Origin: a bacterium | GTDB lineage: Bacteria; Patescibacteriota; Minisyncoccia; Phycocordibacterales; UBA2100 | Direction of reading: 5' to 3' | Assembly (NCBI GenBank): GCA_016789445.1 | Contig: JAEUQT010000002.1 | Coordinates: 8,052 to 72,051, forward strand | Length of the DNA stretch: 64,000 nucleotides | Shown here: piece by piece, positions 33,593 through 64,000 of the stretch | How the letters are laid out: each line of letters starts with the position of its first letter | Position numbering within the stretch: the stretch's first letter is position 1 | The notes under the pieces: generated by a model | Database searches by the model: none | What the model saw: the letters and a program-made list of their open reading frames with translations, nothing else | What the model was told of the DNA's origin: nothing | Translations under genes and position numbers: made by a program

Positions 33593-33944
33593 CCGCCTTA
33601 CATATGGGACTTAAGCAGATGCAAAAGAAGTGGCGTGGATAGCCAGATTTTTTCTGTCCTTCCGATTGCCGCTTCCGAGCGGCTTTTTTTGTACCCGTGT
33701 GTAGCTCGTTGACAACTGAAGAACGACATCAAATTCAGCGTAGAGCCGCAAGGCTTTGCGTTGAGAAAGAAAACGAAAGAATCAAATGTTCTTATTTCTG
33801 GTTACAAGTCTCCAGAAATAAGATCAGGAACCTTCTTCCGAAAGGAAGGAGGCTTGTAGGACACCAAAACCTTCGTATCCTCTGCACTAGACATGCATGA
33901 TGCGAAGTAAAAGAACACGCGGTTCCCAGAATTCTCATAACGAG

Positions 33945-36895
<2,951 letters not shown>

Positions 36896-37170
36896 CGTTA
36901 GGGAATTGTGGGTATCCGTGTTCGCACGGTGTCCAACGCAAGTCTTTCGTTTTTGATGGTGTCGTTCTTCAGTTGCCAAAGGGCATGATCTTTTAGATAT
37001 TCGTGGATTTCAGAGAGGAAAGTCGCATGACTTCTCCTCGGCGGGGGTGAGGGATAGGCTCACACATTGGACATCTGTCCACTTCGGTCGGGCTAAGTTC
37101 CTCTATGAAGGGCAATGCTCTCTCCCCGCTCTTCTCTGAAATCCATGAATACTTAGACTATTGAAGATTC

Positions 37171-37281
37171 TGTGTTGGTGGTTTGGCGAAGGGGGTACAC
37201 CCGTTCTCATTCCGAACACGGCAGTTAAGCCCTTCTGCGCCGATGGTAGTCGAAAGGCGAGAGTAGGTCGCCGCCAACACA
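37171..37281 (+). rRNA. rrf: 5S ribosomal RNA
   Basis: CCCGTTCTCATTCCGAACACGGCAGTTAAGCCC...GCCGATGGTAGT, with terminal helix TGTGTTGGTGG/CCGCCAACACA. Confidence 0.85.
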
Positions 37282-38150: not shown

Positions 38151-39281
38151 GTGCGGATGTCAGGTTTTCTCGGGCGCCTCTTCGGACACATCGACTGGTA
38201 CCTATTCTTTGCGGCACTGAGTGTCTCCGTTCTTGGATTGGTGACGATGTATCCCTTCGGGCAAGGCGGCGAAGCCTTCTTCGATCGACAGATCATCTGG
38301 ATCGGCCTCGCGCTCCTAGTCTTCTTTCTCGCAGCGATACCGGAATATACATTCCTGCGCCGCACCCAGATCGTGACCACTCTCTACATCCTTATCCTCT
38401 CGCTGCTTGCGCTCATCTTTCTTACCGGAACCATCGTCAAAGGTGCGCAGCAGCGCTTCGACTTCGGTTTCTTCGCGCTGCAGCCGTCGGATCCGGCGAA
38501 GCTCATCCTTATCATCGTCTTGGCGAAATACTTCGCGCGGCGTCACGTCGAGATCGCGAACTTCAAGCACATTTTCATTTCCGGTGCGTATGCCGCTGCT
38601 ATCTGCGGACTCGTCTTCCTGCAGCCTGACTTCGGCGGCGCCATCATCATCGCGTCCATCTGGTTCGGTATGGTCTTGGTCGCCGGTATCTCGTGGAAGC
38701 ATCTCGCGTTCCTGCTTATAACCGGACTCATCGCCGCAGGGTCCTTGTGGATGTTCGTACTGCAGCCCTACCAGAAGGAGCGCGTGATGACGTTCATCCA
38801 TCCGTTAGCTGACATCCACGGTGCGGGATACAACGCGTATCAATCGACCGTTGCGGTCGGCTCAGGCGAACTGTTAGGAAAGGGAATCGGCTTCGGCACG
38901 CAGTCGAAGCTACGCTTCCTCCCCGAATACCAGACCGACTTTATCTTCGCCGCCTATGCGGAGGAGTGGGGATTCCTCGGCGTCCTCATCGCGCTCGGCC
39001 TTTTTGCGGTCATCGTGCTCCGTACGCTGGTCATTGCGAGTCATGGATCGGACAACTTCGCGGTCCTCTTCGGCGTCGGCATCGCGATCATGTTCCTGGC
39101 GCACATCATCGTGCATATCGGTATGAATCTCGGGCTCCTGCCGGTTACCGGTACGACGGTGCCGTTCATGAGTTATGGCGGCTCTCACTTGCTGACCGAG
39201 TTCCTCGCGCTCGGCATGCTCATGGGCCTGCGCCGCGCTGAGCGACCGCTCTCGCGCGAGAAGGAGTTACTCGGTGTATAA
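38151..39281 (+). CDS. SEDS-family peptidoglycan glycosyltransferase (RodA/FtsW)
   Basis: Ten TM helices with FtsW/RodA motifs (QPS.PAK...I...A.Y, DFIFA...EE.GF.G). Confidence 0.8.
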   Translation: MRMSGFLGRLFGHIDWYLFFAALSVSVLGLVTMYPFGQGGEAFFDRQIIWIGLALLVFFLAAIPEYTFLRRTQIVTTLYILILSLLALIFLTGTIVKGAQQRFDFGFFALQPSDPAKLILIIVLAKYFARRHVEIANFKHIFISGAYAAAICGLVFLQPDFGGAIIIASIWFGMVLVAGISWKHLAFLLITGLIAAGSLWMFVLQPYQKERVMTFIHPLADIHGAGYNAYQSTVAVGSGELLGKGIGFGTQSKLRFLPEYQTDFIFAAYAEEWGFLGVLIALGLFAVIVLRTLVIASHGSDNFAVLFGVGIAIMFLAHIIVHIGMNLGLLPVTGTTVPFMSYGGSHLLTEFLALGMLMGLRRAERPLSREKELLGV

Positions 39282-40403
39282 CTTAGCGGTTTTCTCAACC
39301 ATCTGATCAAGCGAGAAGACTTTCTGGATACGCTTTAAAAGCTCGTCGGAGAGTGATCGCGCAAGCGTCGCGTCTCCCAGTACTTTCTCGATAGCTTCAG
39401 AGAATGCGCGAGCTGCACCTGACTGGACGGTCAGTCCCGTGAAATTGTGGAGGATGATGTCGCGCACGCCTGCGGTATCGCTCGCGACCGCGGGGATGTA
39501 GGCATAGCCCGCTTCCATGAGAACGTAGGGAAGTCCTTCTTTCTGTGAGGTGAGCAGGAATGCATCGAAGGCGCGCAGATACTGCGCAGCCTCCGGTACG
39601 AAGCCGAGAAAATGCACGCGTGATGCGACGCCTGCATCTTCTGCGCGCGCGCTGAGCTTTTCTTTCTCCTCGCCATCGCCGATGACGATCAGGTGTGCAT
39701 CGGATTCAAGAAAGCCCACCATCTCGATCGCCGTCGCATAATCTTTATTGACGTGCAATTCTCCAATCATGCCGATCCACTTCGCGTCCGATGGGATGCT
39801 GGCGTCCAGCGTACGGATATCGCGCCGCGCATCTTCAGGTGAGAGGAAGCGTGGTGTGAGGATGCCGTTGTGGATGAGTGCCACTCTCTTTGGCAGGAAC
39901 GGCAATTTCTTCAGACGGTCTGCGGTGTCGTTGGCGATGGCGATCGTGTGGTGGGAGAGAAGAACCGTCATCCACGTCGCGATCGTAATGGCGAATCGTG
40001 AAAGCGTACCGCGGTCTTCGTCGAACGGGAGTCCGTGCGAGGTGAAAATGATGTGCTTCACGCCCGCAATGCGTCCGGCAAGCGCGCCCAAACCGCCGGC
40101 CTTCGAACTGTTGAGGTGTACGACATCTGGTTTTTCTTTCTTAAAGAGTCGCGCTAATGCGCCGAGGGCTTTCATATCCCCGAGCGGGTTCACGTCGCGG
40201 GAGAGTTCCGGTACGAGGAGGATCCGGATGCCTGCCTGAGCGAGCACTTTCGCAAGGCGACCTGGTTTTCCGTCGGGGGCAGGGCCAAAGGCGACGGTAA
40301 CCTCAAAGCGATCTTTAGGGAGGTTCGTCGCGAGGTCGTGGACGTAGCGTTGGGCTCCTCCGTAGTTGGATTTAGTGACCACCAGCAGTACTTTTGTTGC
40401 CAT
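39267..40403 (-). CDS. Glycosyltransferase family 4 (GT-B fold)
   Basis: N-terminal GGAQRYV...L and C-terminal E.G.P..LMEA...G.P.V.S motif. Confidence 0.8.
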   Translation of the reverse strand: MATKVLLVVTKSNYGGAQRYVHDLATNLPKDRFEVTVAFGPAPDGKPGRLAKVLAQAGIRILLVPELSRDVNPLGDMKALGALARLFKKEKPDVVHLNSSKAGGLGALAGRIAGVKHIIFTSHGLPFDEDRGTLSRFAITIATWMTVLLSHHTIAIANDTADRLKKLPFLPKRVALIHNGILTPRFLSPEDARRDIRTLDASIPSDAKWIGMIGELHVNKDYATAIEMVGFLESDAHLIVIGDGEEKEKLSARAEDAGVASRVHFLGFVPEAAQYLRAFDAFLLTSQKEGLPYVLMEAGYAYIPAVASDTAGVRDIILHNFTGLTVQSGAARAFSEAIEKVLGDATLARSLSDELLKRIQKVFSLDQMVEKTAKLYTE

Positions 40404-40462
40404 ACGCGAGGGCCGAAATGTGGCTTGTAGTATAGCTTTTTTATCGGTATGATGCCAGGACT

Positions 40463-41818
40463 ATGACCCTGGTTCCGAAACGGGACTATCTCATCCTCCT
40501 TCTGGGAGATCTGTGTATTTTTGCTGCCTCGCTTTGGGTGGCGCTGACGCTGCGGTATCTGGAGATTCCGTCCCTGAGCTTCCTCAGTCTCCACACTGCA
40601 CCGTTTTCCATCCTCTTCGTGGCGTGGGTCGGTATCTTTTTCCTTGCCGGGCTCTATGGTCGCTACACCCGCATCTTTCGCACGAAGCTCCTCTCGACCA
40701 TCGTGTATACGCAGCTCATCAACGTCATCATCGCAGCCCTCTTCTTCTTCTTCGTCGAATTCTTCCTTATCGCACCGAAGACGGTCCTTCTCATCTATCT
40801 CATCGTCTCGTCGTTCCTTATTATCTTCTGGCGTGCGTTTCTCTATCCGCGTTTGCGTGGCGGTCGGAAGTTGAAGGGCGTGCTCATCGCCGCGGGAGCT
40901 GATGCTCGTGCATTGGCAGAAGAGATCGGATCGGATTCACGCTATCCCTTCGCCTTCGAATATGTCGTCGATACGTCGCAGACGCCATCACACGAGGTCA
41001 TCCAACACGCATGCCGTGTCGCCGAGGAAGACGATATTGCATTCCTCGTGGTGGATGTCTCCGACAATGCGATCCAGACGGCACTGCCGATCCTCTACGA
41101 TGCTGCGTTCCATAAGCGCCGCTTCGTGATGGTGAATATGATGGATCTCTATCAGGAAGTCTTCGACCGCGTCCCGCTCTCATTAGTGAAGTACGAGTGG
41201 GTGTTGGAGAATTCATCCATCTCACCGGCGTACGATATTCTGAAGCGACTCATGGATGTCGCTGCGGCGCTCATCGGTGGCGCGCTCTCGTTGCTCCTCT
41301 ATCCCTTTATCATGCTCGCGATCAAGCTTGATGATGGGGGAGATATTTTCATCAAACAGGAACGCGTCGGTCGCTTCCAAAAGCCCATCTATGTCTACAA
41401 GTTCCGCAGCATGACGGGGAATGACAGTGGCAAGTACGGCGAAAGCGGCAAGAGTGAACTGGTGGTTACGCGCGTCGGCCGGATCCTACGCGTCCTGCGT
41501 CTCGATGAGCTGCCACAGATCTGGAATGTCTTGAAGGGCGATCTCTCGGTCGTCGGACCGCGCCCGGAATTCCCGACGCTCGCCGAGCACTACAACGCAC
41601 GCATTCCATACTACAACGCGCGCTACCTCGTCACCCCCGGACTCACCGGTTGGGCGCAGATTTTGCACGATCGTCATCCGCACCACGGCACCGACGTCGC
41701 GGCCACGAAAGAAAAACTCTCGTACGATCTCTACTATTTCCTGCGTCGTTCGCTCTTGCTCGATCTCTACGTCATCTTCCAGACGGTACGTATTGTGCTC
41801 ACCGCGAAGGGCACGTAG
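40463..41818 (+). CDS. Polyprenyl-phosphate sugar phosphotransferase (WbaP/bacterial sugar transferase family)
   Basis: Four N-terminal TM helices plus the C-terminal catalytic domain (QERVG......YKFRSM.....DELPQ..NVL.GD.S.VGPRP). Confidence 0.85.
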   Translation: MTLVPKRDYLILLLGDLCIFAASLWVALTLRYLEIPSLSFLSLHTAPFSILFVAWVGIFFLAGLYGRYTRIFRTKLLSTIVYTQLINVIIAALFFFFVEFFLIAPKTVLLIYLIVSSFLIIFWRAFLYPRLRGGRKLKGVLIAAGADARALAEEIGSDSRYPFAFEYVVDTSQTPSHEVIQHACRVAEEDDIAFLVVDVSDNAIQTALPILYDAAFHKRRFVMVNMMDLYQEVFDRVPLSLVKYEWVLENSSISPAYDILKRLMDVAAALIGGALSLLLYPFIMLAIKLDDGGDIFIKQERVGRFQKPIYVYKFRSMTGNDSGKYGESGKSELVVTRVGRILRVLRLDELPQIWNVLKGDLSVVGPRPEFPTLAEHYNARIPYYNARYLVTPGLTGWAQILHDRHPHHGTDVAATKEKLSYDLYYFLRRSLLLDLYVIFQTVRIVLTAKGT

Positions 41819-41827
41819 TATCAGGAT

Positions 41828-42739
41828 ATGGCTGATAAAGCAGTAGTAACCGGCGGCGGAGGATTCATCGGTGCGCACATCGCTGATGCACTCGTCGCTA
41901 AGGGATTCGACGTGCATGTCGTCGACACGTTCGTCGCAGGGCGATTCGAAGATCGCATCAATCCGAGGGTGACCTATCACGAGGTAGACATACGGGATTA
42001 CGAAAAGCTCGTTCCAATCCTCAAGGATGCTGTGTATGTATTCCACGAAGCCGCGCTTCCGCGCGTGCAGTTTTCCATCGAGAATCCGATCGAGACGTTT
42101 GCAGTAAACGTCGAAGGTCTCGTCGCAACGCTGAAAGCTGCGCACGAAGGCGGTGTTCGTAAGTTCGTCTTCGCGAGTTCCGGCTCGGTGTATGGCGATC
42201 AGGAAACCATGCCGCTCACGGAAGATATGAGCGCGCAGCCGAAGAGTCCATATGGCCTGCAGAAGCATGTTGGCGAACTGACATGCAAGGTCTGGAGCGA
42301 GGTATATGGATTGCCGACGGTATGTCTTCGCTATTTCAACGTCTACGGTTCACGCATGGATCCGAACGGTGCTTATGCGCTCGCGGTCGGAAAGTTCATC
42401 AAACAGCGTCAGGACGGAAATCCGATCACCATCTGGGGTGACGGAACGCATAGTCGCGATTTCACCCATGTGACAGATGTCGTCAACGCTAACCTTTTGG
42501 CAGCGGAATCGACAAAGGTGGGGAAGGGAGAGGTTATCAATATCGGCGCGGGTAAGAACCGCACGGTGAACGAGCTCGCAGCAGCAGTCGGGGGACCTAC
42601 CGTTAACGAACCGGAACGCTTGGAGCCGGCGCACGCACTCGCCGACAATCGGAAGGCGAAGGAACTCCTCGGTTGGGAACCAACGATCTCGCTTGAAGAC
42701 GGTGTTGCCGAGCTTAAGAAAGCTGCAGGACTTACATGA
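41828..42739 (+). CDS. NAD-dependent sugar epimerase/dehydratase (UDP-hexose 4-epimerase-like SDR)
   Basis: TGGGGFIG Rossmann motif and YxxxK catalytic pair (SPYGLQK). Confidence 0.8.
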   Translation: MADKAVVTGGGGFIGAHIADALVAKGFDVHVVDTFVAGRFEDRINPRVTYHEVDIRDYEKLVPILKDAVYVFHEAALPRVQFSIENPIETFAVNVEGLVATLKAAHEGGVRKFVFASSGSVYGDQETMPLTEDMSAQPKSPYGLQKHVGELTCKVWSEVYGLPTVCLRYFNVYGSRMDPNGAYALAVGKFIKQRQDGNPITIWGDGTHSRDFTHVTDVVNANLLAAESTKVGKGEVINIGAGKNRTVNELAAAVGGPTVNEPERLEPAHALADNRKAKELLGWEPTISLEDGVAELKKAAGLT

Positions 42740-43497
42740 TCATCGACGGGAAGAGAATCGCGGAAGAAATCTACGGGAGCTTGCAGCTCCCGCGTCCGCT
42801 TACGCTCGGCATCCTGGTCGGAGCGGAGAATCCGGTAACCGATTCGTTCGTGCGCATCAAAGAAAAAGCCGCGGCGCGTCTGGGTGTTACCTTGGTTCGT
42901 CACGAGATCGCGAAGGATGCAACGACTGAACGTGCGGTCGCTGGCGTTGCTGAACTTGTTGGCTCAACCGATGGCATCATCGTACAGCTTCCGCTCCCGC
43001 ACGGAATCGAAGTCGAGACCGTGCTCGCGGCAATCCCGCCTGAAAAGGATGTTGATGGTATCTCGCCGCATCCGAAAGTCCGTCCGCCGGTCGCTGAGGC
43101 GGTCGGGGAAATCCTTGTTCGTGCAGGTATTGATCCGCACGGAAAGAAAGCGGCGGTCGTGGGTTCAGGTCGTTTGGTTGGCGCACCGGTCGCTGCGCTT
43201 CTCGCGAATCTCGGTGCAGACGTCCACGTGCTTACCTTAGGGGATTCTTTAGATGGATTGAAAGAAGCGGATATCATCGTCTCGGGTGCAGGGAAGCCGG
43301 GACTTATACAGCCTGAGTATGTAAGAGAGGGCGCCGTGCTTGTCGATGCGGGAACGAGTGAGAGCGAAGGGAAGGTGATCGGTGATGCTGATCCCGCATG
43401 CGCTGATAAAGCATCTGTTTTTACGCCGGTTCCTGGCGGTGTCGGGCCAATCGCGGTCGCGATGATTTTCAAGAATCTCGTCGAGCTCGCAAAATAA
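42736..43497 (+). CDS. folD: Methylenetetrahydrofolate dehydrogenase/cyclohydrolase FolD (compact form)
   Basis: Conserved FolD motifs (DGIIVQLPLP, DVDG, GAGKPG, TPVPGGVGP). 253 aa, shorter than usual. Confidence 0.7.
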   Translation: MIIDGKRIAEEIYGSLQLPRPLTLGILVGAENPVTDSFVRIKEKAAARLGVTLVRHEIAKDATTERAVAGVAELVGSTDGIIVQLPLPHGIEVETVLAAIPPEKDVDGISPHPKVRPPVAEAVGEILVRAGIDPHGKKAAVVGSGRLVGAPVAALLANLGADVHVLTLGDSLDGLKEADIIVSGAGKPGLIQPEYVREGAVLVDAGTSESEGKVIGDADPACADKASVFTPVPGGVGPIAVAMIFKNLVELAK

Positions 43498-47306: not shown

Positions 47307-47554
47307 GCCTCTACTTGTCTCACTCTACTGATCTAGAGCTTCGTGAGATCGAGGATCCCACGAGGCCTTCTTTGGCGTGGGGTAGACCTTTGAAAACTGA
47401 AGAGAGAAACAAACGATCTCCGACCCGCAAGGGTTCGGGGAACACACACATAAGCAAGAACACAAGAAAGTAAAAGAAAGCATTGGAACAAAAGATGTAC
47501 ATTCTTTTGTTCCGTCCAACCTAATCAAGATAGGAGTAGAAATACTCCGTCTTT

Positions 47555-49015
47555 AACTGAGAGTTTGATCCTAGCTCAGGGTGAATGCTGGCGACGTGGA
47601 TAGGGCATGCAAGTCAAGGGGACCGCAAGGTAACCGGCAGACGAGATAGTAACGCGTAGGAACGTACCCAGAAGTCGGGCACAGCTCGCCGAAAGGCGGG
47701 GTAATTCCCGATGGTCTCGCAAGAGTAAAGATTTATCGCTTCTGGAGCGGCCTGCGTAATATCAGCTAGTTGGTGAGGTAATGGCTCACCAAGGCTATGA
47801 CGTTTAGGGGAGCTGAGAGGCTGACCCCCATCGATGGAATTGAGATACGGTCCATACTCCTACGGGAGGCTGCAGTCGAGAATATTCGACAATGGGCGAA
47901 AGCCTGATCGAGCGACGTCGCGTGGTGGATGAAGTCCTTCGGGACGTAAACATCTTTTATGAGGGAGGAAGTTATTGACGTTACCTCATGAATAAGGGGC
48001 TCCAAACTCTGTGCCAGCAGGAGCGGTAATACAGAGGCCCCAAGCATTACCCGGAATCATTGGGCGTAAAGGGTGCGTAGGTGGTCATATTAGTCGAATG
48101 TTAAATCCCGGGGCTTAACTCCGGAATCGCGTTCGAAACGGTACGACTCGAGAGCGTGAGAGGTGAATGGAACTCATGGTGTAGGGGTGAAATCCGTTGA
48201 TATCATGGGGAACACCGAAAGCGAAAGCAATTCACTGGCACGTTTCTGACACTCAAGCACGAAAGCGTGGGTAGCGAACGGGATTAGATACCCCGGTAGT
48301 CCACGCCCTAAACGATGATAACTGGATTTAGGGAGTATCGACCCTCTCTGAGTCGAAGCTAACGCGTTAAGTTATCCGCCTGGGTAGTACGGTCGCAAGA
48401 CTAAAACTCAAAGGAATAGACGGGGGCTTGCACAAGTGGTGGAGCGTGTGGCTTAATTCGTCGCTAAGCGAAGAACCTTACCAAGGTTAGAAATCCTACT
48501 GCACGCCTTCCGAAAGGAAGGAAGCCTTCGAGGGTGTAGGACAGGTGATGCATGGCTGTCGTCAGTTCGTGGTTTGAATCGTTCCCTTCAGTGGGGTAAC
48601 GAACGCAACCCTCGTTGCCTGTTATATTTGTCAGGCGAGACTGCCCCCTCACGGGGGAGGAAGGTGGGGATGACGCCAAGTCAGCATGTCCCTCTGATAT
48701 CTTGGGCTGCACACGCGCTACAATGGCTACTACAGCGGGGCGCGACGGGGTAACCCTGAGCAAATCCTTCAAAAGTAGCCTCAGTTCGGATTGAGGTCTG
48801 CAACCCGACCTCATGAAGCTGGAATCACTAGTAATCGCGGGTCAGCCACACCGCGGTGAATACGTTCTCAAGCCTTGTACTCACCGCCCGTCAAGTCAGG
48901 GGAGTTGGGAGTGCCCGAAGCGCATCCTTGCGATGCTTCAAGGCAAACTCAATGACAAAGACTAAGTCGTAACAAGGCACGGGTAGCGGAAGCTGCTCGT
49001 GGATTCATTCTAAAC
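47555..49015 (+). rRNA. rrs: 16S ribosomal RNA (unlinked from 23S-5S), with a non-canonical 3-prime tail
   Basis: GAGTTTGATCCTAGCTCAG start, CTCCTACGGGAGGCTGCAG, GTGCCAGCAGGAGCGGTAATAC, GGATTAGATACCCCGGTAGTCC, AAACTCAAAGGAATAGACGGGGG and GTCGTAACAAGG. The 3-prime end reads GGATTCATTCTAAACAACCTTCTCTT instead of GGATCACCTCCTTA, so the exact 3-prime boundary is uncertain. Confidence 0.85.
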
Positions 49016-51307: not shown

Positions 51308-52675
51308 TTAGAAGGGATAGGTGCGTCCGTTCCCTGAATTGTAGAGAGACTCAATTTGTTCGTTGGTGAGAACGGTGTCCCAAATGCCGCATTCATCAAT
51401 AATGCCGTCGAAGAAATTAAAGTTCAATTTCTGGTATCGTCCTATGCTGATACTTGTCTCTCCAGCCGTCAAAGTTTCGTCTGCAGTGTTCGTGCCGTCA
51501 CTTACCCCGTTCAAAAACAGCTCCTTGCCTGACTGATTCCAGGTGAAAGTCGCCATGTACCACGTATCTGTGGCAAGGGGGGTGTTTCCAAGTACTGCGT
51601 TGTTTCCTGCCCCCATGTAGCCGAACAGAACATCACCATTATGTACCGCTACTCCAAAATCCAGTCCACCCGTTGTGACATTAGTAGCGCTACTAAAGAT
51701 AGATGGATTTCCGGGAGAAGGGTCGAGGGTTTCGGCTTTTATCCAACAACTCAACGTTCCTGTCGTCGTGTCAAAGTAACCCTCATTTGCGCGGGAAAAG
51801 TACTGGGATGATGAATATTCTAAGTCCGCACCGTTATTAATTCGTCCGGAAGCATACAAAATCGAATTCATGTTAGTAAGTGTCTTTCCATTCCCCGTAG
51901 CATCTGCCGCATCGCCACTTGACTCATCAAACTTCCAATACGCAATCGGTTCCGGAATTGAGACGGATGGTCTCGGATTGAGTGCAATGAGTTGCGATAC
52001 CCAGTTTTGTTTGATGGATTTGCTGAATGTAGATGATTTAGATCCTGACGCCCCGGCTGACGATTGTGCACTGACGTCCAACGCTGTTGAGGGGCCCAAT
52101 GGAGCATAAGAGATATCGTACTTTTCTGACATGCCGTTCGGAGCGCTGAATCTGCCTCCGGAGAACAATCCTGCATCAATAGAGAAGAGTGCGACAAGTT
52201 GGGAATCCTCGGTGGTCGTTGTGATGGACGGGGCGGTGGCCGTAGTGCCGCGTCCGCTCGATTCAGACACTGGTCCGATAGGATCACCCGCGTCGACGCC
52301 GCTGAATCGAGTGATGCCTCCTGCTGCGCGGGTGGTAGGGGAGATTCTCCAGATGTAGGCATCTGGCTCGGATCCCGTTGCGAGCTTCCAATATGATGCA
52401 ATTGAGATCTCATTTCCTTTGTTCGTGTGCTCGATTACATTCCAGCCATCAGGAATAGTGATTTGAGGACCAGTGCCTCCAAGGAAGGTTATGTTTGCAA
52501 TGAGTATGTCGCCAGCACCTACATCAGCGGGTGTGTCGACACTTACCTCTGAATACGCAACGTTTGTCGAAAATGCGGTCGATGACGACCCGGCTGTGAT
52601 GCCAGCGAGTGCGACGGTGGCGAGTACTAAAGAGACTAAAATACCTGCAGGAACACCAAAACGGGCTCGTTGCAT
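51308..52675 (-). CDS. Secreted protein with a C-terminal LamG-like (concanavalin A-like lectin) jelly-roll domain
   Basis: Start at MQRARFGVPAGILVSLVLATVALAG (signal peptide, ATG 52675). The C-terminal ~200 aa carry the LamG_3-type pattern (YWKFDE..GD.A.D.SGNG..GTL ... LFLNGV). The 3-prime part of the gene is AT-richer than the 5-prime part. Confidence 0.6.
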   Translation of the reverse strand: MQRARFGVPAGILVSLVLATVALAGITAGSSSTAFSTNVAYSEVSVDTPADVGAGDILIANITFLGGTGPQITIPDGWNVIEHTNKGNEISIASYWKLATGSEPDAYIWRISPTTRAAGGITRFSGVDAGDPIGPVSESSGRGTTATAPSITTTTEDSQLVALFSIDAGLFSGGRFSAPNGMSEKYDISYAPLGPSTALDVSAQSSAGASGSKSSTFSKSIKQNWVSQLIALNPRPSVSIPEPIAYWKFDESSGDAADATGNGKTLTNMNSILYASGRINNGADLEYSSSQYFSRANEGYFDTTTGTLSCWIKAETLDPSPGNPSIFSSATNVTTGGLDFGVAVHNGDVLFGYMGAGNNAVLGNTPLATDTWYMATFTWNQSGKELFLNGVSDGTNTADETLTAGETSISIGRYQKLNFNFFDGIIDECGIWDTVLTNEQIESLYNSGNGRTYPF

Positions 52676-52784
52676 AATTAGGTAGATGAAGAAGTAATTG
52701 CCGCAATCGTAGCATGGGCCGATAACCAGCATGTGGGTTGTGCACTGCGTTGTGCTCTCTAGGAGGCTCGGCTAGAATCGACCA

Positions 52785-57364: not shown

Positions 57365-58030
57365 ATGGCGCTCTTCATCCTTGCAACGCCGATAGGGAAT
57401 CTCGAGGACATCACCTTGCGCGCACTGCGCACACTCAAGGAGGCGGATGTTATTTACGCGGAAGACACGCGGGTGACGGCAAAGCTCTTGGCAAAATACG
57501 ATATCCAGAAGCCGGTATTCCGTCTTGATGAAGCAAAAGAGGCTATCAAGGCCGCCGAGGTGATTGAGCGCTTGGAGAAGAACGAGAATGTGGTGTACGT
57601 ATCTGACGCAGGAACACCTGGTATATCCGACCCTGGTGCTCGGCTGGTCCGCATCGTGCGTGAAGCAGGGCATTCGGCAATCGCCATCCCCGGACCATCG
57701 GCGCTCACTGCGGCGCTCTCCATCGCGGGGATCTCCGGTCACGAATTCATCTTCCTCGGCTTCCTTCCCCACAAGAAGGGGCGACAGACGGCACTGAAGG
57801 CGATTTCGGAAGAGAAGCGCGCGATCATTCTCTATGAATCGCCGCATCGCATACTGAAGCTCTTGGAAGAGCTTGAGATACTCGGCGATCGCCGCATCCT
57901 TGTGGCGCGGGAACTCACGAAAATCCATGAAGAAGTGGTCTCCGGCAGCGCCTATGAGCTCCGCATGCGGTTGGAAACTTCGGGGACCGCGCGAGGCGAG
58001 TTCGTCGTGATTGTCGACGCAACGGAGTAG
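57365..58030 (+). CDS. rsmI: 16S rRNA (cytidine1402-2-prime-O)-methyltransferase RsmI (tetrapyrrole-methylase fold)
   Basis: L.ATPIGNLEDIT.RAL..L...D.I.AEDTR, SDAGTP.ISDPG, and ESPHR. Confidence 0.8.
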   Translation: MALFILATPIGNLEDITLRALRTLKEADVIYAEDTRVTAKLLAKYDIQKPVFRLDEAKEAIKAAEVIERLEKNENVVYVSDAGTPGISDPGARLVRIVREAGHSAIAIPGPSALTAALSIAGISGHEFIFLGFLPHKKGRQTALKAISEEKRAIILYESPHRILKLLEELEILGDRRILVARELTKIHEEVVSGSAYELRMRLETSGTARGEFVVIVDATE

Positions 58031-58045
58031 GGTATACTTTCCGTC

Positions 58046-58279
58046 ATGACAATCGATGCTTTGATCATGTTCGTGGGTGCGTTTATTGCTACACTGCCAT
58101 TCCTTGGTTTCCCGATCCGCATGGACAACATCATCATGGTCGTCACGGGCATCATCGTGATCTCGCTCGGCATCATCATCCGTCGCCGCGCAGTTGCAGC
58201 TCGTGCACGCGCGAAGCGTGTCCATACGTACGTCGAAAGTGCGCCGCAGGTGCGTGGGGAAGTGCATGAGACGGCCTAG
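58046..58279 (+). CDS. Hypothetical small membrane protein (77 aa, two TM helices)
   Basis: Hydrophobic ORF whose 3-prime end overlaps the next gene start by 14 nt. Confidence 0.4.
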   Translation: MTIDALIMFVGAFIATLPFLGFPIRMDNIIMVVTGIIVISLGIIIRRRAVAARARAKRVHTYVESAPQVRGEVHETA

Positions 58280-59564
58280 AGGGTCAGGGCGCATAATTGC
58301 GCTCGGATTCGTCTGCTTCGTTATCGTCGCGGGCGCTTTTGTTGCGAGCGGCTATGCATCGGGTCTGACCCGAACGATCGCGAATGCCGCATTCGCGGTA
58401 ACTCCGGGGACGATGGTGTATACCCGTGGCGCAAGCACCACGTCGGAAGCGGAACCGATTCCTGCAGCACCGAAGCCGGTCGTGAAGCATGTCCCGACGC
58501 CGGATCCGGTTAAGGCGATCTATATGTCGCAGTGTGTCGTGGGTACCCCGAGTTTCCGCGACTCCTTGGTAAAGCTTGTAGATGAGACCGAGCTTAATGC
58601 GATCGTTATCGACATCCGTGATTACACGGGCGGCATCGCGTTTCCGACGGACCACCCGCTTCTCAAGACAATGGTCTCCGATCAGTGCGGCGCGCGTGAC
58701 ATGAAGGCGTTCATCGAACGATTACACGAGAAAGACATCTATGTGATCGGTCGCATCACGACCTTCCAGAATCCGCTCTATACCAAGATGCACCCCGAAC
58801 AGGCAGTGCAGAGCAAGAAAGGGGGCGTATGGAAGGATCACAAAGGTCTCGCGTTCGTCGATGTGGGTGCAACCGCGTATTGGGAGAGCGTCGTTGCGCT
58901 GGCAAAAGAATCGTACGAGATCGGATTCGATGAGATCAATTTCGACTACATCCGCTATCCATCGGACGGCAATATGCTTGATACCGATTTCATCAAGCGC
59001 GACGGGAAGACGAAGCAGGAGATGCTCGAGGATTTCTATAAGTATCTTGATACCAATATTCCGCAGGAGATCGTTATCTCCGCCGATCTTTTCGGCATGG
59101 TCACGACGAACTATGACGATCTGAATATCGGACAGGTGCTGGAGCGGGCGCTGCCGTATTTCGACTATATCGGCCCTATGGTGTATCCCTCGCATTATCC
59201 GAAGGGATTCAATGGCTGGAACGACGTGAATGCGGTGCCGTATGAGCTCATGAAATATGTGATGGCGAGTGCGGTGAAGCGAACCGAAGCCACGACCACC
59301 TCGATCCCAAGTATGGCCTATACCCGTATCGGCACCTCGACGCCCGCAGTGTATTCCAAGCCTGCGTATGACAAGAAAAAGATGCGTGCCTGGATCCAGG
59401 ATTTCGACTATCCCGTTGAATACACGCCGGCCATGGTGGAAGCCCAGCTACGTGCGAATGCTGAATTAGGCCTCCATTCCTACATGGTATGGGATCCCGG
59501 TAACAAGTATTCGAGCTTGAAACCGGTACTGAAGCCGCAACAGGATCTGGCAGCTTCTCATTAA
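58266..59564 (+). CDS. Membrane-anchored putative glycoside hydrolase (GHL10/DUF4015-like TIM-barrel)
   Basis: Start at MRRPRGSGRIIALGFVCFVIVAGAFVA (TM anchor). The body matches the pattern of hypothetical glycosyl-hydrolase-like family 10 proteins (KAIYMSQCV...NAIVIDI.D..G...IGRI..FQ...W.D.....EIGFDEINFDYIRYP). The tabulated start at 58194 is in a GC-rich upstream extension. Confidence 0.55.
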   Translation: MRRPRGSGRIIALGFVCFVIVAGAFVASGYASGLTRTIANAAFAVTPGTMVYTRGASTTSEAEPIPAAPKPVVKHVPTPDPVKAIYMSQCVVGTPSFRDSLVKLVDETELNAIVIDIRDYTGGIAFPTDHPLLKTMVSDQCGARDMKAFIERLHEKDIYVIGRITTFQNPLYTKMHPEQAVQSKKGGVWKDHKGLAFVDVGATAYWESVVALAKESYEIGFDEINFDYIRYPSDGNMLDTDFIKRDGKTKQEMLEDFYKYLDTNIPQEIVISADLFGMVTTNYDDLNIGQVLERALPYFDYIGPMVYPSHYPKGFNGWNDVNAVPYELMKYVMASAVKRTEATTTSIPSMAYTRIGTSTPAVYSKPAYDKKKMRAWIQDFDYPVEYTPAMVEAQLRANAELGLHSYMVWDPGNKYSSLKPVLKPQQDLAASH

Positions 59565-59584
59565 AAAGCGCTATACTATCGGGA

Positions 59585-61354
59585 ATGCAACCCATCAGGG
59601 ATAGTGGGGCTGATGATGAGCGCCGCATCACGTACTTTGCGACGACCCATACCCGCGGCAAGCGGGAGATGTTCGGCATACGTGCGGTAGATCGCGGTAA
59701 GCACATGTACGTGATCGGGAAAACCGGTATGGGGAAGTCCACCATGCTCGAGAACATGGCGATCCAGGATATCCAGAACGGGGAAGGTATCGCGTATATC
59801 GATCCGCATGGTTCGACGGCGGAGAAACTTTTGGATTTCGTTCCGCATGAACGAATCAAGGATGTGCTCTACTTCGCGCCGTTCGATACCGACTATCCAG
59901 TGGGCTTTAATGTCATGGAAGATGTTGGCTACGACAAGCGTCACCTCGTCGTCTCAGGCCTCATGGGTGCCTTCAAGCGCATCTGGGTCGATGCTTGGTC
60001 GGCACGTATGGAATACATCCTCCAGAACGTCCTCCTCGCGCTTCTCGAGTATCCCGGCTCCACACTCCTCGATGTGAACCGCATGCTCACGAACAAACCC
60101 TTCCGTGCGGCGGTCATCGAAAAGATCACCGACCCCATCGTGAAAGCGTTCTGGACAGAGGAGTTCGCAACCTACACCGATCGCTATACCCAGGAAGCGA
60201 CGCCAGCGATCCAGAACAAGGTGGGTCAATTCGTAGCGAATCCTTTGATCCGCAATATCGTGGGCCAGCCGAAATCGACATTCAACCTGCGTCAGATGAT
60301 GGACGAAAAGAAGATTTTCATCGTGAATCTCTCCAAGGGGCGCATGGGTGAATCGAATGCCGCGCTCTTAGGCTCGATGCTCACGGTGAAGATCTATCTC
60401 GCGGCGATGTCGCGTGCCGATGAGCCGCCCGCACGCATGGCGAAGCTGCCACGCTGCTATTTCTATGTCGATGAGTTCCAGTCGATGATGAATGAGGCGT
60501 TCGCCGACATCCTTTCGGAATCGCGCAAATACAAGCTCGCGCTCACCCTCGCAAACCAGTACATCGAGCAGATGGAGGAGAATGTACGCAATGCGGTCTT
60601 CGGCAACGTGGGAACACTCGTCACGTTCCGCGTGGGACCTTTCGATGCGGAGGTCTTGAAGACGGTTTTCGAACCGACGTTCGAAGCGGAGGATCTCGTC
60701 GGCCTCGGTCTCGGTCAGATCTACCTCACGCTCATGATCGATGGCGTGGGATCGGCGCCATTCTCAGCCGAGACGGTTCCGCCTATCGAGGCGCCGCATG
60801 TTTCGTATCGCGAGGACGTCATTCATCACACGCGCAGCGCACACGCGAAGCACCGTTCGGAAGTCGAGGCCATCATCGGGAAGCGGCAAGAAGAATTTGC
60901 GCCGCCTCCGAAAGCACCACCGCGAGAGCGCGATCGATATCCGCGGGAGAACAATTCTGGTGCAAACGGTAATCACCAGCGAGCACCGCAGCCGCGACGA
61001 GAAGATCGTCCTCGTGACGAGGCTCCGCGCGAACCGCGACCGCAGCAACCACAGCCAGCGCCCGTGGCAGAACAGCGCTCGGCTCTGCGAGATGCGATCG
61101 CATCGGTCCAGAAGAAGCCGGAGGAGGTACCAAGGAGCGACGTTCGTTCGCCAGCAGAAATCATGCGTTCGCGCCTCGCCAAGAAAATGGCACGACATGC
61201 GGGCGATGCACCTCCGGAATTCCCGCGCGCACCGCAGGCTCAGCCACAGCCCGTGCGGCCTCCACGAGTTGAATCTGAGGCGCCCCGAACTCCGCGAGCC
61301 AAGCGCGATGAAATCGCAACCGAAGACCTCAAGAAGATATTGAGCGGGGACTAG
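59585..61354 (+). CDS. P-loop NTPase of the FtsK/HerA/TraD-TrwB (type IV coupling-protein-like, DUF87-like) superfamily with a ~160-aa Pro/Arg/Glu-rich disordered C-terminal tail
   Basis: Walker A VIGKTGMGKST, IDPHGS (resembling the DPKG motif of coupling proteins), Walker B YFYVDEFQ, KYKLALTLANQ. There are no TM segments. The C-terminus from ~aa 430 is low-complexity P/R/E/Q-rich. A TATACT hexamer lies 7 nt upstream of the ATG. Confidence 0.55.
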   Translation: MQPIRDSGADDERRITYFATTHTRGKREMFGIRAVDRGKHMYVIGKTGMGKSTMLENMAIQDIQNGEGIAYIDPHGSTAEKLLDFVPHERIKDVLYFAPFDTDYPVGFNVMEDVGYDKRHLVVSGLMGAFKRIWVDAWSARMEYILQNVLLALLEYPGSTLLDVNRMLTNKPFRAAVIEKITDPIVKAFWTEEFATYTDRYTQEATPAIQNKVGQFVANPLIRNIVGQPKSTFNLRQMMDEKKIFIVNLSKGRMGESNAALLGSMLTVKIYLAAMSRADEPPARMAKLPRCYFYVDEFQSMMNEAFADILSESRKYKLALTLANQYIEQMEENVRNAVFGNVGTLVTFRVGPFDAEVLKTVFEPTFEAEDLVGLGLGQIYLTLMIDGVGSAPFSAETVPPIEAPHVSYREDVIHHTRSAHAKHRSEVEAIIGKRQEEFAPPPKAPPRERDRYPRENNSGANGNHQRAPQPRREDRPRDEAPREPRPQQPQPAPVAEQRSALRDAIASVQKKPEEVPRSDVRSPAEIMRSRLAKKMARHAGDAPPEFPRAPQAQPQPVRPPRVESEAPRTPRAKRDEIATEDLKKILSGD

Positions 61355-61355
61355 T

Positions 61356-62099
61356 ATGCGTATCATTGCGGCACTCATCCTCATGGTGCCGTGTCTCGCG
61401 TCTGCGCAGGTCTCGATAACCGAGATCATGTATGACCTGCACCAAGGTTCGGACAGCGGTCGGGAGTGGATCGAGGTGTATAACAGCGGTACTGCTACCG
61501 TTGATCTTACGAAATGGAAGCTCGTGGAGAGCGGGAAGAATCACAAGATCTCGAAAACGAGAGGGGGTCTTGCTGCGGGTACGTATGCAATTATTGCGGA
61601 CAATCCCACCAAGTTCGCCGTTGATCATCCTGACTACGCAGGCGCGTTGTTCGATAGCGCATTCAGCCTGAGCAATGACGGTGAGATGCTCTTCCTGTAT
61701 GCGCCGGACGATGTTCTTGCAGACGAAGTCGGATTCACCAAAGAAGACGGAGGTAGCGGGACCGGGGACTCCCTGCAGCGCGTGGATCTTGAAGCGCGCG
61801 TCTTCTCTCCGGGGATTCCGACACCGGGAGCATCAATTCCTGAGAGCGGCCTTGCACGAACGCCGCAAGTGTCTAGCGGCTCGGAATCGAAAACGGTCTC
61901 GGCGCCGATTTCAGCGACTCCTATACAAGGTGAGCCAGTGAAGCGCAGTGGACTTCAGATCGCCGCAGCAGGAGGTACTGACGTGCCGGCAATCATGTGG
62001 TGGGGCGCCGTCGTTCTGATCGCACTCTGGGGAGCGGGAGGGATCGTCTATGCACGGCGCTTGCAGGGAACCGAGTGGGAGATCATTGAAGAAAGCTGA
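61356..62099 (+). CDS. Lamin-tail-domain (LTD) protein with a signal peptide and a C-terminal TM anchor
   Basis: Signal peptide MRIIAALILMVPCLASA. The LTD signature ITEIMYD....D.GREWIEVYN.G...VDLT.WKL...G is present, followed by an S/T-rich linker and a C-terminal hydrophobic helix (AIMWWGAVVLIALWGAGGIVYA). Starts 2 nt after the ATPase stop. Confidence 0.6.
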   Translation: MRIIAALILMVPCLASAQVSITEIMYDLHQGSDSGREWIEVYNSGTATVDLTKWKLVESGKNHKISKTRGGLAAGTYAIIADNPTKFAVDHPDYAGALFDSAFSLSNDGEMLFLYAPDDVLADEVGFTKEDGGSGTGDSLQRVDLEARVFSPGIPTPGASIPESGLARTPQVSSGSESKTVSAPISATPIQGEPVKRSGLQIAAAGGTDVPAIMWWGAVVLIALWGAGGIVYARRLQGTEWEIIEES

Positions 62100-62120: not shown

Positions 62121-62972
62121 ATGTCAGAAAAGCTCGCACTGGTGACCGGCGGAGAAGGATTCGTCGGATCGAATCTCGTAAAGCGTCTCGTCTCTGAGGG
62201 CTATCGGGTCATCTCCCTGGATAACCACTCGACGGCTCCTGAAGGGAATCGTATCGATGGTGTCGAATACCGTTCGGGGCATACGAAGGATATCGGTGAA
62301 CTCATCCCTGAGACGCCGGACATCATCTTCCATCTTGCCGAGTACGCGCGTCCGGAGAAGAGCTTCGAGGATATCGCGATGGTATGGGATCTGAATATGG
62401 TCGGCACTTTTTCGGTCTTGGAGTTCTGGCGGACCCGCAAGTGCAAGCTGGTGTACGCAGGATCATCGACGAAGTTCGCCGACGGCGGCCTTGGTCGCGA
62501 CCAGAGTCCGTATGCGTGGACGAAGGCGGCGAATACGGAACTGGTACGCAATTACGGCGCATGGTTCGGCCTGCAGTACGCGATCACGTATTTCTATAAC
62601 GTATATGGCCCGGGCGAGCGTGCGGGCAGGTACGGCACGGTGATCGAGATCTTCCGTCAGAAGAAAGAAAAAGGAGAGCCGCTGCAGGTCACATCTCCGG
62701 GAACGCAGCGTCGCAATTTCACGCATATCGATGATATCGTCGATGGGCTTCTCTTGGTCGGCGAAAAAGGTGAGGGAGATGAGTACGGTTTAGGCAATGA
62801 GAAAGATTATTCGATCCTGGAGATTGCCGAACTTTTCGGTGGTCCCGTCGAGATGAAGCCGGAAGTTCCGGGGAATCGCATGAAGGGGATTGTCGACACC
62901 GCAAAGACCAGTGAGCTTGGTTGGAAGGCTACGCGTTCGGTAGAGGAGTACATCCGCTCGGTTATTACATGA
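62121..62972 (+). CDS. NAD-dependent epimerase/dehydratase (SDR family)
   Basis: VTGGEGFVGSNL Rossmann motif and YxxxK (SPYAWTKAAN). Confidence 0.8.
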   Translation: MSEKLALVTGGEGFVGSNLVKRLVSEGYRVISLDNHSTAPEGNRIDGVEYRSGHTKDIGELIPETPDIIFHLAEYARPEKSFEDIAMVWDLNMVGTFSVLEFWRTRKCKLVYAGSSTKFADGGLGRDQSPYAWTKAANTELVRNYGAWFGLQYAITYFYNVYGPGERAGRYGTVIEIFRQKKEKGEPLQVTSPGTQRRNFTHIDDIVDGLLLVGEKGEGDEYGLGNEKDYSILEIAELFGGPVEMKPEVPGNRMKGIVDTAKTSELGWKATRSVEEYIRSVIT

Positions 62973-64000
62973 AGAAGATCCTCATTTTCTCGCTTGCGTA
63001 CTTTCCGAGACATATCGGCGGCGCGGAGATCGCCATCAAGGAGATCACTGATCGTATCAAACCATCGGATATCGAATTCCATCTGATTACGCAGCGCTTC
63101 GATGAATCACTCCCGCTCGAGGAGCGCATCGGTACCGTGCAGGTCTATCGCATCGGGAACGGCGCATCGTATCTCGCCAAGATTTTATTCGTGCTGCGCG
63201 CTGCTGCGCTCGGCGCGAAGCTGCATCGCACACATCATTTCGATACTGCCTGGGCGATGATGAGCTACATGGTGTTTCCTGTGCTGCTTATGCGCCTGTG
63301 GGGAATCCGTCTGCCGTATGTCCTCACGCTGCAGGAAGGAGACCCGTTCGAGCATGTCTTCGGGCGCTGGCATATCCGACTCCTTATGCCGCTTCTGAAA
63401 AAAGGTTTTCGCGAGGCGAGTGTGGTACAGACGATCTCGACCTTCCTTGCCCAATGGGCCCGTTCCGCGGGATTCCGCGGGCCGCTCTATGTCGTGCCAA
63501 ACGGTGTCGATACGGCACACTTTTCCCAGGAACATCCTCAGTCGGTGATCGATGAAATCAAGGATTCTCTCGGCAAGCGAATGGGCGATGTGTTCCTTAT
63601 CACTACGTCGCGTCTCGTCCATAAGAATGCGATCGATGACGTGATCCGTGCACTTACGAAGCTCCCGGCGAATGTTCGATTCATGGTGCTCGGGACCGGT
63701 AATGATGAGACGATGCTTCGCGCTCTCGCGAAGAAAGAAGGTGTCGTTGATCGTGTCGAATTCCTCGGACAGATCTCGCATGCAGAAATGCCCAAATATT
63801 TGAAGGCAAGCGATATCTTCATCCGCCCCAGCCGCTCGGAAGGTATGGGGAATTCGTTCGTTGAAGCGATGGCCGCAGGTTTACCGGTTATCGCGACCCA
63901 GGAAGGGGGACTTGCGGATTTCCTCTTCGATGCGAAGCGTAATCCCGATCAGCCGGTCACGGGATGGGCGGTCGATAAGGATTCGCCGGACCAAATCGTG
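62969..64000 (+). CDS. Glycosyltransferase family 4 (partial, continues beyond window end)
   Basis: GT-B N-terminal domain and the start of the C-terminal E.G.P..V..A..GGL motif region (EGMGNSFVEAMAAGLPVIAT). 4-nt overlap with the upstream gene. Confidence 0.8.
   Translation, partial: MKKILIFSLAYFPRHIGGAEIAIKEITDRIKPSDIEFHLITQRFDESLPLEERIGTVQVYRIGNGASYLAKILFVLRAAALGAKLHRTHHFDTAWAMMSYMVFPVLLMRLWGIRLPYVLTLQEGDPFEHVFGRWHIRLLMPLLKKGFREASVVQTISTFLAQWARSAGFRGPLYVVPNGVDTAHFSQEHPQSVIDEIKDSLGKRMGDVFLITTSRLVHKNAIDDVIRALTKLPANVRFMVLGTGNDETMLRALAKKEGVVDRVEFLGQISHAEMPKYLKASDIFIRPSRSEGMGNSFVEAMAAGLPVIATQEGGLADFLFDAKRNPDQPVTGWAVDKDSPDQIV

Follow-up and report, generated by a model that had tools for sequence, protein, structure and literature searches.

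An orphan coupling-protein-like ATPase without a transmembrane domain and its envelope-gene neighbourhood in a patescibacterial chromosome

The question raised by this locus is what a relative of the type IV coupling proteins (T4CPs) does when it is encoded in a bacterial chromosome beside genes for cell wall and glycan synthesis. The DNA analysed, here called the window, is a stretch of 64,000 nucleotides (64 kb) from a Kaiserbacteria-like patescibacterial genome (GenBank assembly GCA_016789445.1, contig JAEUQT010000002.1, positions 8,052 to 72,051), and all coordinates below are those of the window. The module in question lies on the + strand at 58046-62099 and consists of genes for a small two-helix membrane protein (smTM), a DUF4015 protein, a T4CP-like ATPase and a protein with a lamin-tail domain (LTD). 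A scan for open reading frames (ORFs) recovered these four co-directional genes at the positions given by an earlier note that had been made from the sequence alone. The closest homologues of the window proteins are found in Kaiserbacteria, Paceibacteria and Parcubacteria metagenome-assembled genomes, and NCBI annotates the ATPase as a 'type IV secretion system DNA-binding domain-containing protein'. The module is best explained as a chromosomal envelope locus around an orphan T4CP-like ATPase that lacks transmembrane (TM) helices, a locus that is conserved among the Paceibacteria sampled. As to its function, we tentatively favour a split coupling protein, made up of a two-TM anchor and a soluble motor, which would operate without a type IV secretion system (T4SS) and would be tied to the biogenesis of envelope glycans or glycoproteins.

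The ATPase and its candidate membrane partner

The ATPase gene (59585-61354, + strand; 589 amino acids (aa), MBL8158355.1) encodes a motor (aa 1-429, 59585..60871), supported by matches to Pfam T4CP families, an AlphaFold2 model and Foldseek comparison, and a long C-terminal tail. A Walker A motif, GKTGMGKS (aa 45-52, 59717..59740), was located by motif scan and is invariant or near-invariant in alignments. It is followed by an IDPHGS motif (aa 72-77, 59798..59815), in which D73, P74, H75 and G76 are invariant in 73 sequences and which we presume to be akin to the DPK motif of FtsK and T4CPs, and by a Walker B motif, YFYVDE (aa 292-297, 60458..60475), in which V295, D296 and E297 are invariant. 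No hydrophobic or TM segment was found by hydropathy scan across all 589 residues. Matches to the Pfam families TrwB_AAD_bind (37.2 against a cut-off of 20.5), T4SS-DNA_transf (31.2 against 20.1) and TraG-D_C (22.6 against 22) exceed their thresholds, while the NCBIfam equivalog models fall far below theirs (TIGR03743, 46.3 against 366 bits; TIGR03754, 34.4 against 647; NF045973, 30.3 against 250). The HerA family DUF87 scores 22.6 against a cut-off of 23.2, over aa 39-76 only, and no NurA or Sir2-type neighbour was identified beside the ATPase; in Pfam there was no match to FtsK_SpoIIIE or to the gamma domain.

Comparison of the ATPase profile with PDB sequences gave no match and it was fold comparison alone that worked. 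With a 28-sequence alignment AlphaFold2 returned a model with a predicted local distance difference test score (pLDDT) of 42; with a 73-sequence alignment this rose to 81.8, with a predicted template-modelling score (pTM) of 0.83. In the model the nucleotide-binding domain is interrupted by an all-alpha insertion, at about aa 119-240. Its best Foldseek matches are TrwB (1e9s/1gki), DotL (6sz9) and Cagβ (8dol), with E-values of about 1e-10 to 1e-9 and TM-scores of 0.5-0.63, at about 15% identity to solved T4CPs; HerA, VirB4 and DndH-C are close behind, and FtsK structures are not among the 50 best matches listed. The ATPase is T4CP-like in sequence and in modelled fold, and is without a transmembrane domain (TMD). 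The earlier description of a cytoplasmic, coupling-protein-like nucleoside triphosphatase (NTPase) with Walker A and IDPHGS motifs is borne out by these scans, by the Pfam thresholds passed and by the TrwB-type fold. With VirD4, TrwB and TraD it shares the Walker A/B domain with its all-alpha insertion, Pfam scores above cut-off and a C-terminal extension that ends in a conserved peptide. Unlike them it has no N-terminal TMD, has no T4SS or relaxase gene nearby and fails the equivalog models, and it is a chromosomal protein, widespread among the Paceibacteria sampled, whose gene stands beside glycan and wall genes.

Relatives of this protein are numerous. A word-indexed search returned at least 8,000 matches, the best 120 of which are 67-97% identical over nearly the full length, and an exhaustive search of 50%-identity representatives returned 20,931 clusters at a threshold of E<=1e-3 and 5,588 when this was lowered to E<=1e-30. 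Identity to the window domain is 62-90% across the aligned Paceibacteria homologues, and the short, TM-less forms of Taylor-, Yonath-, Zambryski- and Pacebacteria are mostly 62-70% identical to the window motor (lowest 55%). Passages of a survey published in 2025 report that 2,918 Patescibacteria genomes yielded 5,713 VirD4-type homologues, of which only 148 lie close to virB4, and allow that exaptation is possible (PMC12102498). The window ATPase, which is not near virB4, is one of these orphans. The short and long forms, the smTM partner and the DUF4015 and GT4 glycosyltransferase context are not described in those passages. The judgement of the earlier note that this is not a described system therefore holds for the gene context as far as that part of the survey goes, but not for the orphan T4CP homologues themselves.

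If the ATPase has no membrane domain of its own, a membrane partner might be sought in its neighbours. The candidate is smTM (58046..58279, + strand; 77 aa), in which two hydrophobic helices, as described in the earlier note, were confirmed by hydropathy scan. It matches no Pfam family. The loop on the outer side is short and conserved (LPFLGFPxxW), the cytoplasmic tail is basic, and the topology appears to be N-in/C-in. A hidden Markov model (HMM) built from 8 homologues found a single copy in each of 79 out of 91 short-form sequences (the window and 90 loci). The misses mostly reflect short flanks, so that 79 of about 83 informative loci (~95%) are positive and the true exceptions are L005, L012, L054 and L084. 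The protein is kept where DUF4015 is missing (L170 and about 29 close loci), and the linked two-helix proteins found upstream span roughly 50-130 aa. The same HMM gave no match in 80 loci of the long-form relatives of the ATPase, which bear a TM helix and are described below. A separate 2-TM protein thus accompanies exactly that form of the ATPase which has no TM helix.

The TMD of TrwB is about 70 aa long and has two helices and a small loop in the periplasm (PMC7431656), and the pairing of a TM-less T4CP with a separate membrane protein is represented by TraJ/TraI of pIP501 and forms class iii of Llosa and Alkorta (as cited in PMC7431656). It is because smTM matches the TrwB TMD in size and topology, and because such a class exists, that a split coupling protein is proposed here. 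The likeness to TraJ/TraI lies in the combination of a soluble T4CP ATPase with a small membrane protein. TraJ/TraI belong to a complete conjugative T4SS, whereas none is seen here, and smTM is coupled to DUF4015, contact with the ATPase being presumed. From synteny and complementarity we infer that smTM may supply the membrane domain missing from the ATPase, in which case the two could together make up a hexameric ring at the membrane, resembling a coupling protein but split in two.

The remainder of the ATPase is a Pro/Arg/Glu/Gln-rich tail, predicted to be disordered from its composition (aa 430-589, 60872..61354). These last 160 residues, singled out in the earlier note, do consist of 50% P/R/E/Q, against 21% in the body of the ATPase. 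Three conserved islands interrupt the tail, namely QRSALRDAIASV, RSPAEIMRSR and the C-terminal peptide DEIATEDLKKILSGD (61307-61351). The last of these, with the consensus E(V/I)xE(D/E)xL(R/K)K(I/V)L, is present in close and distant groups alike, while the RSPADILR island occurs in 90 of 120 close homologues (P0001-P0120) and in none of 120 distant ones (P0391-P0510). The idea that RSPADILR tracks the presence of the LTD gene was rejected: there is no clean correlation, P0417 from the LTD-positive locus L086 lacks the island, and the comparison is phylogenetically confounded. The C-terminal peptide is conserved where LTD is absent and LTD therefore cannot be its general partner. TraD and DotL also have C-terminal extensions ending in a short peptide, which are used to bind adaptors, and the tail peptide of the present ATPase may likewise recruit a partner or cargo.

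Gene order in close and distant relatives

The neighbourhood was compared in 80 loci from GTDB species representatives with an ATPase identity of 64-87% (L001-L080, the close set). ORFs in the fetched loci were chosen by codon-usage scoring; choice by length picked antisense shadow ORFs in GC-rich DNA. A block murD-murC-rsmI-smTM-[variable]-ATPase-[LTD]-epimerase-glycosyltransferases (GTs) is common to all 80. All these loci belong to a single clade and share a single syntenic block, so function and inheritance cannot be told apart within the close set. A distant set of 11 loci was found with a profile of short forms of 44-51% identity, and here the flanks differ, with a VTT-domain protein, MraY-like and ATP-grasp genes, SecDF with a LAGLIDADG endonuclease, ribosomal and S1 proteins, or pyruvate kinase. 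The core order is kept in these loci while the housekeeping flanks (murD/murC, rsmI, SecDF) vary: a small protein is encoded upstream in 10 of the 11 and a glycan cluster is adjacent in all 11. No T4SS or relaxase families were seen in the 11 Pfam-annotated loci, among the recurrent families sampled from the 80 close loci or in 20 of the larger ORFs of the window. Nor were ComEC, ComEA, DprA or pilus genes seen in the Pfam-annotated loci or those 20 ORFs.

In the window the glycan cluster begins with an NAD-dependent sugar epimerase/dehydratase (62121..62972, + strand; Pfam Epimerase, 8.5e-44), which is also found downstream in nearly all close loci. Its stop is overlapped by 4 nt by the gene for a GT4 glycosyltransferase, GT4A (62969..64000, + strand), which runs off the end of the window and is at least 343 aa long. 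A GT4 gene follows the ATPase on the same strand in 10 of the 11 distant loci, directly in six (-4 to +19 nt) and with an epimerase, LTD gene or small ORFs between in the other four. The GT4A orthologue (42-51% identity, 244-339 bits, against at most 66 bits for other GT4s) is the glycosyltransferase gene met first downstream of the ATPase in all 8 distant loci compared, immediately after it in five (-4 to +19 nt) and separated from it by an epimerase, an LTD gene or a 204-aa protein in the other three. GT4A is kept after the ATPase even in L084, whose upstream context is unrelated, and in all it was found downstream in 53-54 of the 58 short-form loci with at least 5 kb of flank (~92%). Against NCBIfam and PDB it matches generic GT4 families only. 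The distant clusters also hold further GT4s, Wzy_C-TPR proteins, GtrA, PMT_2, methyltransferases, UDP-glucose dehydrogenase and epimerases. A second glycan-synthesis cluster, with a GT4 on the minus strand, a Bac_transf initiating transferase and an epimerase, lies elsewhere in the window at 39267-43497, between FtsW/RodA and SecDF.

Capsule gene pairs of the CpsC/CpsD type, in which a 2-TM adaptor and a cytoplasmic P-loop protein with a C-terminal tail head a GT operon, resemble this arrangement in organisation only, as here too a 2-TM mini-protein and a soluble P-loop NTPase with a disordered tail lie upstream of GT genes. CpsD is a MinD-like bacterial tyrosine kinase (BY-kinase) with a Tyr cluster, whereas the present ATPase is of the FtsK/HerA class and has a single Tyr in its tail.

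Between smTM and the ATPase the window encodes a DUF4015 protein of 432 aa (58266..59564, + strand; identical to MBL8158354.1). Hydropathy and Pfam indicate one N-terminal TM helix (aa 6-35) followed by an extracytoplasmic hydrolase-like domain, which matches PF13200 over profile positions 1-313 of 313 (272.9 bits against a cut-off of 27, E 4e-81). The only solved relative is PDB 4s1a, an 'uncharacterized protein' (7e-46). Pfam describes DUF4015 as a putative glycosyl hydrolase, and by family membership the protein is a putative glycoside hydrolase. The membrane-anchored DUF4015 assignment of the earlier note holds on both counts, but its alternative label, GHL10, is unsupported, since at E<=0.01 no GHL10 match appears and only a sub-threshold match to GHL6 (22.6 against 35) was obtained. 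The literature on DUF4015 yielded one domain-fusion remark, which ties it to partners of peptidoglycan deacetylases, and nothing more.

Of 70 loci, 41 (~59%) have DUF4015 upstream of the ATPase, and so do 9 of the 11 distant loci, in which its start overlaps or abuts the small upstream gene. Where distant loci encode small proteins between DUF4015 and the ATPase, these match nothing in NCBIfam and are seemingly unrelated to one another. The slot that separates smTM from the ATPase differs in content among the 80 close loci: it holds DUF4015, a secreted 370-aa protein or a fusion of a YkuD L,D-transpeptidase with a Peptidase_S11 carboxypeptidase in some, and toxin-antitoxin genes or transposases in others. 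An SLT+LysM lytic transglycosylase lies downstream of the ATPase or LTD gene in two genomes, and two further genomes have a PG_binding_1+PKD protein upstream of the ATPase. Examples of ORFs in this exchangeable slot next to the ATPase are L030 4759-5889, L055 6095-7666, L033 3915-5216 and L005 2061-3776.

The last gene of the module encodes the LTD protein (61356..62099, + strand; 247 aa, MBL8158356.1). Pfam and hydropathy agree with the earlier description of a signal-peptide protein with an LTD and a C-terminal anchor: a signal-like N-terminal helix (61356-61406) is followed by the lamin-tail domain (aa 15-128; PF00932, 59.4 against 34.3, 5e-16). A linker rich in Ser, Thr and Ala then leads to a WW-TM anchor (aa 212-233, 61989-62054), beyond which a conserved tail, TEWEIIEES (62070-62096), lies in the cytoplasm. 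The C-terminal module as a whole, comprising the linker, LWW, the TM helix, R(R/H)x(R/K)K and the cytoplasmic peptide EW(D/E)I(I/V)EE, matched no NCBIfam family. Its anchor motif was found in 112 of 120 database homologues, on no other protein in the window and L001-L080 apart from one out-of-frame chance match, and not at all in the distant loci L081-L088. With the LTD nucleases ExeM and NucH the protein shares a signal peptide and an N-terminal LTD domain. It differs from them in having no catalytic domain, and in having an anchor of its own, LWW-TM-RRxKKxEW(D/E)I(I/V)EE, with a conserved cytoplasmic peptide. The LTD-type proteins of close loci are 250-570 aa long, many with PKD and further domains, and one follows the ATPase, with the same C-terminal anchor, in about 53 of the 59 close loci with enough flank; an LTD domain is encoded downstream of the ATPase in 42 of 69 short-form loci.

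The long forms of the ATPase, examined in 80 metagenomic loci (L089-L168), are 900-1100 aa long and combine an N-terminal TM helix with a conserved domain of about 350 aa that has no Pfam family. Sometimes two paralogues stand in tandem, or the N-domain is a separate gene; a separate gene for this domain was looked for near short-form ATPases and none was found. A protein with Sigma70_r4 and HARE-HTH domains is encoded directly upstream of the long forms, TopA, SecDF and a XerC-like recombinase (6 loci) are nearby, and FtsQ/MurG/FtsW/MraY lie on the opposite strand. Neither smTM, DUF4015 nor GT4A occurs in these 80 loci. These neighbours, among them the sigma/HTH protein, TopA, the XerC-like recombinase and the division and cell wall (dcw) genes, suggest that the long forms have a different role, possibly linked to DNA or division.

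The spacing of genes within the module is tight, as the earlier note remarked: rsmI and smTM are 15 nt apart, smTM and DUF4015 overlap by 14 nt when DUF4015 starts at the ATG at 58266, 20 nt separate DUF4015 from the ATPase gene and the gap from the ATPase to LTD is 1 nt. Such packing is not special to these four genes, as murI-murD-murC-rsmI upstream (murC and rsmI are 2 nt apart) and epimerase-GT4 downstream are equally tight. A promoter-like site, TTGTCG-16-TATACT (58011..58038, + strand), lies inside the 3' end of rsmI, just 5' of smTM. It is the sole sigma-70-like match in 53.5-64 kb, where shuffled sequence gives 6.4, and is weak evidence, being a consensus match alone in a member of the candidate phyla radiation (CPR).

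Competing explanations

The split coupling protein that we tentatively favour would work as follows. The ring formed by smTM and the ATPase would operate in the absence of a VirB4-type T4SS, and its substrate would have to do with the assembly of envelope glycans or glycoproteins and would not be DNA, while the wall enzymes might open or remodel the wall locally. The LTD protein would be a lineage-specific surface accessory, possibly a glycosylated cargo or a receptor. It is the recurrence of wall enzymes, together with the glycan cluster, that places this putative machine in envelope biogenesis.

Several observations weigh against this proposal. Translational coupling, through overlapping start and stop, joins smTM to DUF4015 and not to the ATPase, and rsmI usually precedes smTM. 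The gap before the ATPase in distant loci is usually 46-350 nt, larger than the gap after it, so that the tightest pairs are smTM-DUF4015 and ATPase-GT4A. No fusion (Rosetta-stone) protein joining the ATPase to a GT, DUF4015 or smTM was found, and the survey for VirB4 covers the loci and 20 of the window ORFs rather than whole genomes. The linkage itself is synteny within one class of compact genomes, in which tight packing extends to unrelated genes and synteny is kept over long blocks. Conservation as high as that of the ATPase typifies nucleic-acid or core-machinery enzymes rather than envelope accessories, and we know of no glycan pathway with a motor of the FtsK/HerA class.

Some of these points lead to the alternative that there is no functional module at all. 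The genes would then be unrelated neighbours in a long conserved envelope and housekeeping block, and the ATPase would have an independent core role. This would fit the run murI-murD-murC-rsmI-...-epimerase-GT4, all co-directional and tightly packed, the recurrence of the block in 80 of 80 close loci, the dispensability at this position of DUF4015 and LTD alike, and a conservation of the ATPase (62-90%) that far exceeds that of LTD (28-55%) and GT4A (42-67%). What it leaves unaccounted for is that smTM...ATPase-GT4A persists in distant loci where the flanks have changed (VTT protein, SecDF, rRNA intron endonuclease, S1 protein, pyruvate kinase), and that smTM accompanies the TM-less form alone, being absent from the loci of the TM-bearing long form. 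We consider an absence of any module somewhat unlikely.

It is unlikely, too, that the ATPase is an ordinary coupling protein acting in trans, that is, the substrate receptor of a VirB4-type T4SS (monoderm, conjugation-like) encoded elsewhere, near dnaA/dnaN in Paceibacteria, with its present neighbours incidental. The Pfam T4CP thresholds that it passes, the fold shared with TrwB, DotL and Cagβ and a C-terminal extension whose terminal peptide recalls TraD and DotL would all be expected of such a receptor. In the passages of the survey cited above, t4cp is often far from virB4 and most Patescibacteria classes carry a T4SS, but so few homologues lie near virB4 (148 of 5,713) and, in Ca. S. epibionticum, the t4cp homologue is non-essential whereas other T4SS genes are essential (PMC12102498). 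The ATPase also has no TMD, scores far below the TraD/VirD4 equivalog cut-offs (46 against 366 bits) and retains its linkage to smTM and GT4A across rearranged flanks.

A bolder version of the envelope role is that smTM and a hexameric motor form a stand-alone translocon, independent of a T4SS, in which an exapted ATPase of the DNA-translocase type powers export or assembly, whether of an envelope polymer or of a glycosylated surface protein (LTD, for example), while local hydrolases open the sacculus. This we regard as improbable. A candidate polymer would be an anionic, teichuronic-acid-like glycan, suggested by the best match of the GT4A orthologue, which is to TuaC and is sub-threshold, and by the UDP-glucose dehydrogenases in the cluster.

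The earlier note had suggested a minimal device for the uptake or secretion of DNA, in which the exported LTD protein binds extracellular DNA or an envelope polymer and the ATPase pulls DNA across the membrane. T4CPs and their FtsK and HerA relatives are DNA translocases, the ATPase and LTD genes are adjacent in about 90% of the close clade, and the conserved cytoplasmic tail of LTD could contact a cytoplasmic partner. LTD domains are moreover found in extracellular nucleases and proteins linked to extracellular DNA, such as ExeM (NCBIfam) and the haloarchaeal ComA-like proteins and Hvo_1477 (PMC5118699). That note had made its suggestion depend on co-occurrence of the two genes across relatives, and the pairing stands in the close clade but is lost outside it: LTD is at this position in only 1 of the 11 distant loci (L086), although the ten aligned ATPases there are 62-70% identical to the window domain. 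The universally conserved C-terminal peptide of the ATPase cannot have LTD as its universal partner. No ComEC, ComEA, DprA, nuclease, relaxase or VirB4 was identified in the annotated loci, Pfam finds no nuclease or channel domain in the LTD protein, and the neighbours are glycan and wall enzymes. The suggestion of a DNA device is weakly supported by this evidence and seems to us quite improbable. With its Ser/Thr-rich stalk, C-terminal anchor and conserved cytoplasmic tail, the LTD protein is best seen as a clade-specific surface protein inserted in the locus rather than as a core partner, and it is probably glycosylated.

An FtsK-like translocase for chromosome segregation or dimer resolution is hardly credible, for although the ATPase belongs to the same ASCE (additional strand, catalytic glutamate) superfamily, has a Pro/Gln-rich linker that recalls FtsK and lies near mur genes, and has long-form relatives beside a XerC-like recombinase, TopA and FtsQ/MurG/FtsW/MraY, it resembles FtsK in neither the listed fold matches nor the Pfam matches, and a complete canonical FtsK (4TM, alpha, motor, gamma) encoded in the same window at 21115-23349(-) rules it out as an FtsK replacement.

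Other features of the window and the place of the motor in Patescibacteria

Several features of the window outside the module were recorded. The rRNA genes are unlinked and their order is unusual, with 23S and 5S at 33942-37279 and 16S at 47553-49014, followed by tRNA-Ile; about 10 kb of envelope genes (FtsW/RodA, GT4, Bac_transf, epimerase, SecD/SecF) lie between 23S-5S and 16S. An isoleucyl-tRNA synthetase-like protein of 1146 aa (6985-10425, + strand) carries a His_Phos_1 (histidine-phosphatase) domain at aa 491-653, between stretches that match class-I tRNA-synthetase catalytic domain models. Annotation is sparse for four large proteins that are probably located at the surface: a 658-aa ORF with a weak DUF11 match alone (11020-12996, + strand), a 653-aa protein with PG_binding_1 (24892-26853, + strand), a 794-aa protein with a lipase-like LCAT/PGAP1 domain (27000-29384, + strand) and a 474-aa Laminin_G_3 protein (51308-52732, - strand).

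Patescibacteria carry thousands of VirD4-like genes that are detached from any T4SS, and the function of these genes is an acknowledged question. The short-form ATPase, among the most conserved proteins of its locus, can now be given a candidate partner in the membrane and a stable context beside a glycan cluster, and is set apart from the TM-bearing long forms found in DNA and cell-division contexts. The notion of an orphan T4CP that was perhaps exapted can in this way be turned into testable hypotheses, concerning a complex of smTM with the ATPase, a partner of the tail peptide, and a glycan or glycoprotein cargo as opposed to DNA. If it is true that the motor serves envelope assembly, this would be a new use of the FtsK/HerA/T4CP class of motors.

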